Below, piece by piece: positions 1-13,363 of a stretch of 64,000 bases of DNA. The notes beneath the pieces were generated by a model. It made no database searches. It had not been told where the DNA came from and saw only the letters and a list, made by a program, of their open reading frames with translations. The stretch is from Escherichia coli. GTDB lineage: Bacteria > Pseudomonadota > Gammaproteobacteria > Enterobacterales > Enterobacteriaceae. Every line of letters starts with the position of its first letter. Within the stretch, counting starts at the first letter, position 1. Location: the NCBI RefSeq assembly GCF_016026235.1, contig NZ_CP065613.1; one strand, given 5' to 3'. Position numbers and translations under genes: made by a program.

Positions 1-966
1 CATACCTTTGATTCTTTCCCATGAGCGGGAGGTGAATGTTTTTTCCAGCAAATCAGCTTTTGCGCGTTTGGCGTCGTTACTGGTGCCCCCATGGTGCTTG
101 TTGAGCAACTCGATAATTTCATCAAGTGCGATTTCTTTTGCACGCTTTTCTTTTAGCCATGTCGGTGTACCGTCGTTGGCAAATAATTCACTGTTATCCC
201 GTGAGGTATCGATGCCGAGGTGTTCACCTCCCAGGTTAAGAAACTCGATATGAGGAAGAAAGTTTTTAAATGTTGGGTTTGAAAATACCTGTCCATCAAT
301 ACGGGTGGAGCGATCTTTTAGTATTCTGGCGGTGCGCCACACCTGACCGGTTTCTATGTTCATTTGCTTCTCCATCTGGATCAGGATGGAGGGTTCATAA
401 CCGGTTTCTGTTTCTGCTTTCATTTTTATACCGGTTTTTGCCAACTGGCGTTTGCCATCATCACCTTCGAAAAAGTCATACTCATATCCTGCACGCCCGC
501 ACATAATAATGTGCGCCTGACTGTTAACAAATCGATCGGTAAAGCGTCGCCACTCCTGTTTGAGCCACGCCCAGTCTGAAAATTCCAGTCCTCGTTTACG
601 GTTTCGGCGTCTGGCATACTCGTCGCATAATCCGGTCCAGAAGTGACTGATGGAGTCGATGATCATTACGGAACCGCTGCTTTCCGCTTCATTAATGGCT
701 TCAAGCAGATCAACAAACGAGCGGGTTTTTGCCGTAAATAATTCGATATTTTCCGCATCAAAGCGGGGTTTAACCCAGTCAGAGCCTGTTTCTGTGTCCA
801 GAAACATTACCGGGCGGTTACCAGCTTCAATTCCCCGTTGCCGCATAAGCATTACCAGACCAATAGCCAGTTCGCTTGCTGTGTAGGTTTTGCCGTCGCC
901 AGCAAACCCCATAATTCCTGCTTTTAGATAGGCCTGTGTGTTTATTGCTCGTTGAAAAAGCGCCAT
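1..966 (-). CDS. P-loop ATPase, phage recombination/replication-associated (3' end outside window)
   Basis: Minus-strand ORF from ATG at 966 running off the left edge; own translation shows Walker A GFAGDGKT and Walker B-like VMIIDSIS; start abuts the stop of the Gam-like gene. Confidence 0.6.
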   Translation of the reverse strand, partial: MALFQRAINTQAYLKAGIMGFAGDGKTYTASELAIGLVMLMRQRGIEAGNRPVMFLDTETGSDWVKPRFDAENIELFTAKTRSFVDLLEAINEAESSGSVMIIDSISHFWTGLCDEYARRRNRKRGLEFSDWAWLKQEWRRFTDRFVNSQAHIIMCGRAGYEYDFFEGDDGKRQLAKTGIKMKAETETGYEPSILIQMEKQMNIETGQVWRTARILKDRSTRIDGQVFSNPTFKNFLPHIEFLNLGGEHLGIDTSRDNSELFANDGTPTWLKEKRAKEIALDEIIELLNKHHGGTSNDAKRAKADLLEKTFTSRSWERIKGM

Positions 967-4505: not shown

Positions 4506-4670
4506 GATGGCAGCCTCGATAGTCAGTTTAAATAACTCACCACCAGAGGTAGCAATCTCATGGGTGGTGAGACGCACAGGGTTGCTACAACCGGTGACTA
4601 CCGAAACCGGCCAGCCTTGCGGCTGCCCTGCACGCCCCACCATAATCTGAATGTGGCTGTGCTTGACGCA

Positions 4671-4694
4671 TAAAAAAACCGCCTGAGCGCGGTT
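4671..4694 (-). terminator. Intrinsic terminator (minus strand)
   Basis: Stem aaccgc/gcggtt with 6-nt loop followed by a 7-A run on plus strand (U-run on minus transcript). Confidence 0.45.
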
Positions 4695-4821
4695 ATGCGC
4701 AGTAGTCATCGTCGGGGTAGCAATCCCGGCCCCCGTTTTATGAGGTGCAGGTGCACTATAATTCCACCCGTTCTGGTTTTCAATAGCTACATTCAACATT
4801 TTCTCTCACCTTTCATCACCG

Positions 4822-10464: not shown

Positions 10465-10691
10465 TTTTATGGGGCACCTTTCTGATTGATTTCATATTGG
10501 CGAGGTAAGTAGAATGACTGCGGGTGCTTGAGGCTATCTGCTTCAGGCATGAACACCAAAAGGCAGATAGAGAAAAGCCCCAGTTAACATTACGCGTCCG
10601 GCAAGACGCTTAACATTAATCTGAGGCCAATTTCATGCTTTGCACATGTAGGTTAGCCTCTTACATGCCGAAAGGCAAGGAGAAGCAGGCT

Positions 10692-10847
10692 ATGAAGCAG
10701 CAAAAGGCGATGTTAATCGCCCTGATCGTCATCTGTTTAACCGTCATAGTGACGGCACTGGTAACGAGGAAAGACCTCTGTGAGGTACGAATCCGAACCG
10801 GCCAGACGGAGGTCGCTGTCTTCGTAGACTACGAATCCAGGAAGTAA
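10692..10847 (+). CDS. hok: Hok/Gef-family type I toxin
   Basis: 51 aa MKQQKAMLIALIVICLTVIVTALVTRKDLCEVRIRTGQTEVAVF, near-canonical Hok; in-frame upstream extension from 10635 may be mok-like. Confidence 0.8.
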   Translation: MKQQKAMLIALIVICLTVIVTALVTRKDLCEVRIRTGQTEVAVFVDYESRK

Positions 10848-10924
10848 GAGTGACCGGGCGGGGAGCTGATCCCATCCCCGCCCACCTCTGATGTGTCAGG
10901 CATCCTCAACGCACCCGCACTTAA

Positions 10925-10967
10925 CCCGCCCATCGCTGTGATCTCTCAGCGTTTCGGCGGGTTTTTT
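10925..10967 (+). terminator. Intrinsic terminator downstream of hok
   Basis: Nested GC stems (cccgcc...ggcggg) followed by TTTTTT. Confidence 0.45.
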
Positions 10968-11096
10968 GTTGTTTATTTCCGGTGAATTTGATTCGCGCAC
11001 CTTCGCAGATAGAATCGACTCACTTAAGTAGCGCGCAGGGAGAAGAGGGATGGACCCCGAACAGGGGAGAGCTATTTATCTGGAAGGATTCTGAAG

Positions 11097-13052: not shown

Positions 13053-13129
13053 GGCCCTTTAGCTCAGTTGGTCAGAGCGAGCGACTCATAATCGCCAGGT
13101 CGCTGGTTCAAGTCCAGCAAGGGCCACCA
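13053..13129 (+). tRNA. tRNA-Ile2 (anticodon CAU; could also be read as Met)
   Basis: Hand-folded cloverleaf; anticodon loop ctCATaa; close to E. coli ileX-type from memory; ends CCA. Confidence 0.8.
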
Positions 13130-13130
13130 A

Positions 13131-13207
13131 CCACCACTAGCTCATCCGGATAGAGCATCAACCTTCTAAGTTGACGGTGCGAGGTTCGAGTCCTCGGTGG
13201 TGGGCCA
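13131..13207 (+). tRNA. tRNA-Arg (anticodon UCU)
   Basis: Acceptor ccaccac/gtggtgg, anticodon loop ctTCTaa, T-arm ggttcgagtcc, 3' GCCA. Confidence 0.75.
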
Positions 13208-13209
13208 GC

Positions 13210-13285
<76 letters not shown>

Positions 13286-13288
13286 TAT

Positions 13289-13363
<75 letters not shown>

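Follow-up and report, generated by a model that had tools for sequence, protein, structure and literature searches.

A very probably complete hok/mok/sok type I toxin-antitoxin cassette of the hokW/sokW subgroup in an Escherichia coli lambdoid prophage

Introduction

The closest described relative of the locus reported here is hokW/mokW/sokW, carried by the Stx2 phages 933W and Sp5 (VT2-Sakai) (accession AF125520), and this relative has been characterised experimentally. HokW is toxic and is neutralised by sokW expressed from its own promoter, for which both RNase III and Hfq are required (Takada et al., 2021, PMC8621323). Upon treatment with mitomycin C, sokW RNA disappears in a RecA-dependent fashion and HokW accumulates in the inner membrane, where its accumulation advances growth arrest and doubles the release of phage (PMC8621323). 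The 933W record annotates mokW, hokW and an antisense sokW RNA, with the mok frame in register with hok.

Among the more distant systems, hok/mok/sok (parB) of plasmid R1 is the paradigm of the family. There, the translation of hok depends on the translation of mok, and disruption of the 3' stem-loop was found to destabilise Tr-hok (PMC9841398). Two loci of E. coli K-12 are further points of reference: hokC/mokC/sokC (gef), which is part of the chromosomal backbone and not of a prophage, and hokD (relF), which is located in the Qin prophage and thus, like the locus described below, in a lambdoid prophage.

Here, a stretch of 64,000 nt of E. coli DNA (hereafter, the window) was analysed, for which an earlier sequence-only reading had proposed a hok-type toxin locus. 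Judged from the sequence and its relatives, positions 10486-10967 very probably hold a hok/mok/sok type I toxin-antitoxin cassette that is complete and belongs to the prophage-borne hokW/sokW subgroup. The cassette as such represents already known biology.

Materials and Methods

The definitions of the regulatory elements follow Le Rhun et al. (2022, PMC9841398), and the elements were placed by alignments to 933W, to hokC and hokB of K-12 and to an R1-type plasmid locus. The relatives comprised 80 loci from phage contigs and 35 further loci from diverse Enterobacterales, the latter obtained by a scan for the invariant motif that extends from dcb to the hok Shine-Dalgarno sequence (SD). Leader matches to Rfam model RF01794 were judged against its gathering score of 59. 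Three R1-type loci were left out of the rows for the tac/fbi duplex, as the search had anchored on an upstream look-alike (ATGTGCCCGG) in them. The open leader structure that was tested in a MAFFT leader alignment of 58 sequences comprised the tac/ucb helix, the tac inner stem, the Sok-target hairpin, the SD/dcb hairpin and the pre-SD hairpin. Pair counts were taken from the window's own fold; over the tac inner stem and the Sok-target hairpin, the Rfam consensus pairs lose register in part with the window allele, which has a 16-nt insertion. For the naming of the toxin, the NCBIfam Hok subfamily models were considered and dropped, since the toxin scored 55 bits against a curated cut-off of 73. 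A simple terminator scan, which is restricted in loop length and applies no strict T-run rule, missed both hairpins downstream of hok, the second one (10923-10963) because of its long loop, and both were placed by homology and folding instead.

Results

Genomic setting and extent of the cassette

The cassette belongs to a lambdoid prophage and is situated in its early-to-late (nin-like) region, with queH on one side and a DUF1367 gene on the other. A segment of 511 bp (10480-10990) is 100% identical in one complete E. coli chromosome, whose prophage shows the order DUF977, a hypothetical gene, QueH, hokD, a hypothetical gene, DUF1367, DUF1364, DUF1133, tRNAs and a holin, and the neighbouring genes in the window are the same. 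The identical allele was also found in about ten independent IMG/VR prophage contigs, and relatives at 80-95% identity exist in 4,712 of 5,426 complete E. coli genomes, in a median of two and up to nine places per genome. A search of the rest of the window for a second hok copy or a Sok-like target identified none.

The sequence-only reading had delimited the locus as 10560-10967. A start at 10560 truncates the cassette, as it cuts off both the hok promoter and tac. The functional unit begins further upstream, and the block that is conserved with other hok loci covers ~10500-10929. The features are compiled in Table 1.

Table 1. Predicted features of the hok/mok/sok cassette, in window coordinates.
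Feature	Position	Strand	Sequence or composition	Basis or remark
hok/mok promoter	10486..10515	+	-35 TTGATT, 18-bp spacer, -10 TAGAAT	promoter scan, 9/12 matches
Full-length hok/mok mRNA (predicted)	10522..10965	+		5' end ~10522 by homology; 3' end ~10917 or ~10965
tac (translational activator)	10522..10533	+	GGGUGCUUGAGG	invariant in 51/51 clade alleles
Sok RNA (predicted)	10573..10643	-	~71 nt	ends mapped from annotated sokW and sokC
ucb / anti-SD box	10575..10583	+	AAGCCCCAG	pairs with mok SD region 10621-10627 in predicted closed forms
mok Shine-Dalgarno	10623..10626	+	GAGG	invariant in 58/58 family members; 8 nt upstream of mok ATG
mok reading frame	10635..10847	+	70 aa, in frame with hok	ORF list; layout as mokW, mokC
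sok promoter (predicted)	10650..10678	-	-35 TTGCCT (10678→10673), 17-bp spacer, -10 TAACCT (10655→10650)	sequence; hexamers as in 933W/Sp5 sokW
dcb	10656..10660	+	GCCUC	pairs with mok SD GAGGC (10623-10627) in the open form; Rfam consensus structure
hok Shine-Dalgarno	10678..10682	+	AGGAG, inside family-invariant CAAGGAGAA	invariant in two alignments; paired in predicted full-length fold
hok toxin gene	10692..10847	+	51 aa, MKQQKAMLIALIVICLTVIVTALVTRKDLCEVRIRTGQTEVAVFVDYESRK	Pfam PF01848, E 9.8e-23
GC-rich 3' stem-loop	10856..10883	+	GGGCGGGGA/UCCCCGCCC	9-bp stem, -19.4 kcal/mol
fbi (fold-back inhibitory element)	10904..10916	+	CCUCAACGCACCC	99% conserved in clade; duplex with tac
Rho-independent terminator-like compound hairpin, then T6	10923..10967	+		-22.8 kcal/mol, z -5.3

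Comparison with hokW, R1 and hokC

Over the conserved block (10502-10926 in the comparison with 933W), the window and the hokW/mokW/sokW locus of 933W and Sp5 (AF125520) share 92% nucleotide identity. The elements tac, ucb, mok SD, dcb, hok SD and fbi as well as the -35 and -10 hexamers of sok are identical, and in both loci the Sok hairpin is extended by the same 16 nt beyond what the Rfam consensus has. The 56 differing columns (in ~440) are clustered in four places, namely the Sok-target segment (10628-10642), the 3' stem-loop, which differs in sequence and in length, positions 10542 and 10545, and the region beyond 10929. The changes at 10542 and 10545 affect the metastable/tac stem and stay pairable, as G-U and U-A. 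The -10 of the hok promoter is common to hokW and 93% conserved across 51 alleles, whereas the -35 lies outside the block shared with 933W and its region differs in sequence. The two loci also occupy different positions in their phages: the cassette of the window is found between queH and the DUF1367/YbcO/DUF1133 block upstream of the tRNAs, that of 933W near the right end of the genome.

The R1 locus exhibits the same order of elements, i.e., tac, ucb, mok SD, Sok target, dcb, hok SD, 3' stem-loop and fbi, and in both loci the sok promoter is embedded opposite the 5' codons of mok and the leader covers the Rfam model completely. R1 differs in a longer tac-stem loop, a shorter Sok hairpin and its location on a plasmid instead of a prophage, and its mok is in the +1 frame relative to hok (in the numbering of PMC9841398), whereas the mok of the window is in frame. 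In K-12 hokC/mokC/sokC, mok is likewise in frame, the leader scores 118 bits against the Rfam model and the 5' end of sokC has the same position relative to the mok ATG as that of the predicted Sok of the window. This locus differs in its shorter Sok hairpin and in an IS186 element immediately downstream of the CDS.

Hok toxin and mok reading frame

The near-canonical Hok ORF of the sequence-only reading was confirmed by its match to the Pfam HOK_GEF profile (79.9 bits at a cut-off of 22), which extends over positions 1-42 of 42. The predicted toxin is 98% identical to HokW of 933W and Sp5, 90% to K-12 HokD, 78% to HokC and only 43% to R1 Hok, and it retains 12 of the 12 residues that are invariant among six compared toxins. 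A single one of its 51 residues differs from HokW (E49R), in the C-terminal tail. In RefSeq, the identical gene bears the name hokD (WP_014532198.1).

The in-frame upstream extension that had been taken for a possible mok-like frame is an ATG-initiated ORF, and its arrangement is that of the annotated pairs mokW/hokW of 933W and mokC/hokC of K-12, in which mok and hok have a common stop codon. The first 19 codons of mok span the Sok target, dcb, the sok promoter and the hok SD. The mok ATG is conserved in nearly all alleles.

Conserved leader and folding switch

The leader (10522-10697, plus strand) matches positions 1-157 of the 157 of Rfam RF01794 with 117 bits (E 5.5e-26). Though named "sok", this model describes the sense strand from +1 to the hok AUG and not the antisense RNA, as is evident from K-12, where the match (602-754, minus strand) lies on the strand of hokC/mokC and the annotated sokC (653-711) on the other. 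The Rfam match therefore proves a conserved leader, not an antisense RNA as such. The start of the leader model also places the 5' end of the mRNA at ~10522, where the sequence aligns with the R1 +1 (GGCGCUU); the 3' end could lie either just after fbi or at the terminator.

Across 51 unique alleles of the hokD/W clade, tac, dcb, the sok -35 and the hok SD do not vary at all, and conservation reaches 96-99% in ucb, the mok SD, the mok ATG, the sok -10 and fbi. Within the clade, only the loop of the tac stem, the Sok-target segment and the 3' stem-loop are variable, and all clade-invariant positions are kept in the window. The partner of tac is fbi in the full-length fold and ucb in the open form. 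In the window, the tac/fbi duplex comprises 12 bp with one bulge (-21.5 kcal/mol) and is part of the full-length minimum-energy fold. Across subfamilies, this duplex is maintained by compensatory changes, for example from GGGUGC/GCACCC to GGGCGC/GCGCCC and from GAGG/CCUC to GAGA/UCUC. Thus, tac GGGUGCCUGAGA pairs with fbi UCUCAUGGCACCC in hokB and tac GGGCGCCUGAGA with fbi UCUCAUGGCGCCC in other Escherichia; in Kluyvera, GAGA is matched by UCUC, in Pantoea, GGUGCUU by AAGCACU, and in R1, tac GGCGCUU by fbi AAGCGCC.

The alternative pairings of the leader were followed across the 58 aligned sequences. In the open structure, 84% of cells are paired and 18 pairs have changed on both sides, a value that was reached by none of 500 shuffles; when the 3' partners were slid by one to three columns, pairing fell to 35-52%. 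The tac/ucb helix of this form is 94% paired. The closed helix between ucb and the mok SD is paired in 92.7% of cells and shows a swap from A-U to G-C (29 versus 28). Hence, for both alternatives of ucb, i.e., with the mok SD in the closed and with tac in the open form, pairing is maintained at 92% or above, in each case with a double-sided substitution. The columns of the dcb/SD pairs are invariant in 58 of 58 sequences, and these and most of the tac/ucb pairs are uninformative for covariation either way because they do not vary. The sequence-only reading had held that the absence of an antisense transcript and of conserved leader structure would indicate a decayed locus; conserved leader structure is present and covaries.

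In the prediction for the full-length RNA (-189.6 kcal/mol, z -8.8), the minimum-energy fold contains tac/fbi, ucb paired with the mok SD, and the hok SD and AUG in paired form. For the truncated RNA without fbi, the predicted minimum is the closed form with the metastable tac hairpin, in which the SD is still sequestered, and not the open form. Enforcing tac/ucb in the truncated RNA raises the energy by 1.6 kcal/mol above this minimum and yields an SD/dcb hairpin with the loop CUUUGCA. A defective switch was considered as an explanation and rejected, since hokW and R1, which are both experimentally active, behave alike and their open forms are slightly costlier in the same calculation (+2.5 and +2.7 kcal/mol, respectively). 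The predicted folds thus give no sign of a defective switch in the window RNA.

Sok antisense RNA and its promoter

The 5' ends of the annotated sokW (1571-1641 in the locus numbering of 933W) and sokC both map to position 10643 of the window, and the 3' end of sokW maps to 10573. The predicted Sok RNA would consist of a single-stranded 5' tail of 15-17 nt (GCAAAGCAUGAAAUUGG), a long hairpin (10626→10578) and a CUUUU 3' end (fold of -28.6 kcal/mol, z -4.7), an architecture that it would have in common with SokW and SokC. A cis-encoded Sok gene with a promoter inside the 5' codons of mok, a single-stranded 5' tail and a terminator hairpin is thus predicted on the opposite strand. Both the RNA and its promoter would fall within the interval of ~10560-10690 in which an antisense sok had been anticipated on the minus strand.

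The sok promoter, which the sequence-only reading had not been able to define by eye and for which it had recommended an alignment to known hok/sok loci, could be placed in this way together with tac, ucb, dcb and fbi. It stays below the threshold of a generic promoter scan, as its -10 matches the consensus at three of six positions, and its assignment relies on homology instead. Conservation among the 51 alleles amounts to 100% for the -35 and 97% for the -10, and a single base of the spacer, at 10665, differs from 933W. In Sp5, antitoxin activity was lost from a "pro-less" construct in which the sokW -10 had been mutated with primer YO-421 (PMC8621323). This primer changes exactly the -10 equivalent of TAACCT.

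In the open form, the target loop CUUUGCA (10638-10644) contains UUUG, which fits YUNR, although four-letter motifs easily arise by chance. Such a YUNR (U-turn) motif is reportedly found in the target loop next to the mok AUG.

Hairpins at the 3' end

The strong GC hairpins and the terminator that the sequence-only reading had seen downstream of hok are both supported by folding. The stem-loop that follows the hok stop codon presumably forms the protective 3' end of the processed (truncated) hok mRNA; it is located as in R1, and its sequence varies among alleles while the hairpin is retained. Downstream of fbi, the compound hairpin of the candidate terminator occupies 10923-10963 and its T6 is found at 10962-10967. 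This terminator is not part of the block conserved with hokW: it recurs in a shorter version in K-12 hokD, while 933W carries an unrelated sequence at this place and is without such a hairpin.

Relation to K-12 hokD and the question of decay

Many chromosomal hok loci are said to be inactivated. The window could accordingly contain a decayed, non-functional remnant like K-12 hokD/relF or the IS-disrupted hokA, hokC and hokE, in which the ORF was kept and regulation or expression was lost, and its RefSeq name is indeed that of the truncated K-12 copy. In addition, some related IMG/VR alleles carry ACG or ATA in place of the mok start codon. K-12 hokD is homologous to the window from the hok SD to ~10929, including the 3' UTR and fbi. 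However, everything upstream of its hok SD is replaced by relBE, so that it is without tac, ucb, mok and sok, and no Rfam leader match was found in it even at E<=0.01. In the window, by contrast, queH lies upstream and the leader is complete, the mok ATG and SD are intact, and the locus has both promoters, fbi and the 3' stem-loop. Its sequence and ORF list revealed neither an IS element nor a frameshift. Together with the retention of all clade-invariant positions and the recurrence of the identical allele in independent prophage contigs, these findings make decay very improbable. Instead, the name hokD reflects the similarity of the toxin only, and the copy in the window is a complete locus of the ancestral type. 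It is probably active, because its mok frame, its predicted Sok gene and its folding switch are intact, unlike those of K-12 hokD.

Variation in the Sok-recognition segment

The stretch over which Sok and hok would recognise each other (~10625-10649) corresponds to the spacer between the mok SD and ATG plus mok codons 2-5 and is complementary to the 5' tail of Sok. Among prophage hok loci that are otherwise more than 90% identical, this segment is hypervariable, with 17-18 haplotypes in 51 alleles, and it exceeds every other part of the conserved block in variability by a wide margin. The number of differences per site amounts to 0.26-0.34, compared with 0.003-0.06 for the hok CDS and the sok promoter. 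The haplotypes of the segment occur in shuffled combinations with the flanking variants. Relative to sokW, 7 of 17 positions of the Sok 5' tail and its target differ (window GCAAAGCAUGAAAUUGG, SokW GUUCAGCAUGGAUUGAG). Because of this difference, the N-terminus of Mok differs as well (MLCTC..YM.. in the window and MLNTC..YV.. in MokW), with changes at residues 3 and 11.

Tentatively, diversifying selection or cassette exchange might have given rise to mutually orthogonal Sok specificities, an idea that we hold to be somewhat doubtful. The variability could equally result from relaxed constraint, as a cis-antisense pair is complementary whatever its sequence. In two of two pairs of co-resident copies the Sok-target types differ, which is uninformative for two pairs only, given the haplotype frequencies. 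If the former idea were true, co-resident hok/sok copies in one E. coli genome would not cross-protect, and the window allele would represent one specificity, distinct from that of SokW.

Discussion

The present analysis shows the sequence elements of the cassette, how far they are conserved, and that they can pair and covary. Transcription, 3' processing, toxicity and the biological trigger of the locus are inferred from its close homology with characterised systems, and the following mechanism is drawn from R1 hok/sok and Sp5 hokW/sokW. A constitutive promoter would give rise to a stable hok mRNA of ~400-440 nt, whose 5' end (tac) would be clamped to the 3' fbi. In this closed form, ucb would sequester the mok SD and thereby prevent both the translation of mok and hok and the binding of Sok. 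Slow exonucleolytic trimming from the 3' end to the GC-rich stem-loop would then remove fbi, upon which tac would pair with ucb and the mok SD would enter the SD/dcb hairpin, with the mok start region in its loop. Translation of mok would in turn drive that of hok, and the resulting 51-aa inner-membrane peptide would collapse the membrane potential. As long as it is supplied, Sok, presumably an unstable antisense RNA of ~71 nt, would use its single-stranded 5' tail to pair with the region of the processed mRNA where mok translation starts, and RNase III would cut the resulting duplex. Once the supply of Sok stops, Hok would be made. This could happen upon loss of the prophage or, as shown for hokW/sokW, upon RecA-dependent prophage induction.

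By analogy, such a cassette may serve to assist lysis at induction, as prophage addiction or as abortive-infection defence; for the nearest relative, assistance of lysis alone has been demonstrated. In the second case, the same machine would stabilise the prophage by post-segregational killing. On plasmids, such killing is what R1 hok/sok is the paradigm for (PMC9841398), and the annotation note of 933W speaks of "prophage maintenance". The cassette is moreover found in many different prophage surroundings, like a mobile moron whose homology ends sharply at ~10500 and ~10929, which would also be in line with addiction. However, integrated prophages are rarely lost by segregation, and the sole phenotype assayed for the closest homologue was an earlier growth arrest with a two-fold higher release of phage after induction (PMC8621323). 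Addiction as the main role is therefore considered rather unlikely.

In the third case, the same machine would have been selected for abortive infection, in that the shut-off of transcription by a lytic phage would deplete Sok and release Hok. The R1 hok/sok system has reportedly been seen to exclude phage T4, and accessory regions of prophages commonly hold defence genes. No feature of the window bears on this role, however, and it appears improbable.

In RefSeq, the locus is represented by the toxin CDS only, under the name hokD, which hides an intact mok frame, a predicted Sok gene and a folding switch. Beyond this correction of the annotation, the importance of the locus is small. Provided that the prophage can be induced, the cassette may bring lysis forward and increase the yield of phage, as was shown for Sp5.

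Variability of the Sok target and variant alleles

An alignment of the window-related loci L002, L006 (the hokW/mokW/sokW locus of phage 933W) and L008-L087 (phage-contig relatives) revealed that the segment targeted by the 5' tail of Sok, window 10625-10649, is hypervariable, with 17-18 haplotypes among 51 hokD/W-clade alleles that are otherwise more than 90% identical. Across these alleles the target segment shows 0.26-0.34 differences per site vs at most 0.06 in the hok coding sequence, and its haplotypes are recombined relative to the variants of the tac loop in the same alignment. Different Sok-target types were found in both co-resident pairs of hok loci in this set, a sample too small for a test (n = 2): L023 and L056 from one genome, and L015 and L061, located approximately 3.3 kb apart on a single contig.

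Other differences affect single alleles or small groups of them. In three IMG/VR relatives (L034, L072 and L073) the mok start codon, at the site homologous to window 10635-10637, is altered to ACG or ATA with hok intact, and these loci are probably silenced copies. Another IMG/VR relative (L020, 475-999), 97% identical to the window in the remainder of the allele, carries a 14-nt tandem duplication (GGCTATCTGCTTCA) within the tac stem.

RF01794 and other RNA elements

In the Rfam search, the family named "sok antitoxin" (RF01794) matched the sense-strand leader of the hok mRNA, which it covers from +1 up to the hok AUG, and not the antisense Sok RNA. Labelling its matches "Sok" would put the RNA on the wrong strand and make it about 157-176 nt long, not about 60-70 nt.

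Coordinates of Rfam matches
Feature	Location	Strand	Basis
C4 antisense RNA	within window 4560-4748	-	Rfam, 75.7 bits
isrK	within window 4560-4748	-	Rfam, 57.6 bits
RF01794	window 10522-10697	hok mRNA sense	Rfam
RF01794	K-12 hokC locus (L003) 602-754	opposite annotated sokC	Rfam
Four clustered tRNA genes	window 13053-13360	+	Rfam
naRNA4	window 48741-48811		Rfam, borderline (60.4 bits vs 59.5)
sRNA-Xcc1	window 52311-52399	-	Rfam, 68.3 bits
Lambda cIII thermoregulator	window 56951-57009	-	Rfam, 88.5 bits

The C4 and isrK matches adjoin each other in the prophage that carries the hok cassette, upstream of its immunity/replication region; the annotation of the 100%-identical E. coli locus places a gene for a Rha-family regulator upstream of the region equivalent to the C4 and isrK matches. 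The tRNA genes, identified as Ile, Arg, Thr and Gly by the annotation of that locus, lie a short way downstream of the gene for DUF1133 (Q-like). In the strain with the identical locus, an inserted IS1 separates DUF1133 from the tRNAs; the window has no such insertion. The lambda cIII thermoregulator match suggests that a second lambdoid prophage lies at the window's right end, with larger ORFs between it and the first.

The mok reading frame

Comparison of L007 with L089/L093, R1-type loci, showed that mok does not keep a fixed frame with respect to hok. The two are in frame with each other in the window, hokW, hokC and an IncFII R1-like variant, whereas in R1 proper mok is at +1, owing to a difference of 1 nt in the length of the sequence that follows its ATG. 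This lack of conservation fits the view that what counts is that mok is translated, not which product results.
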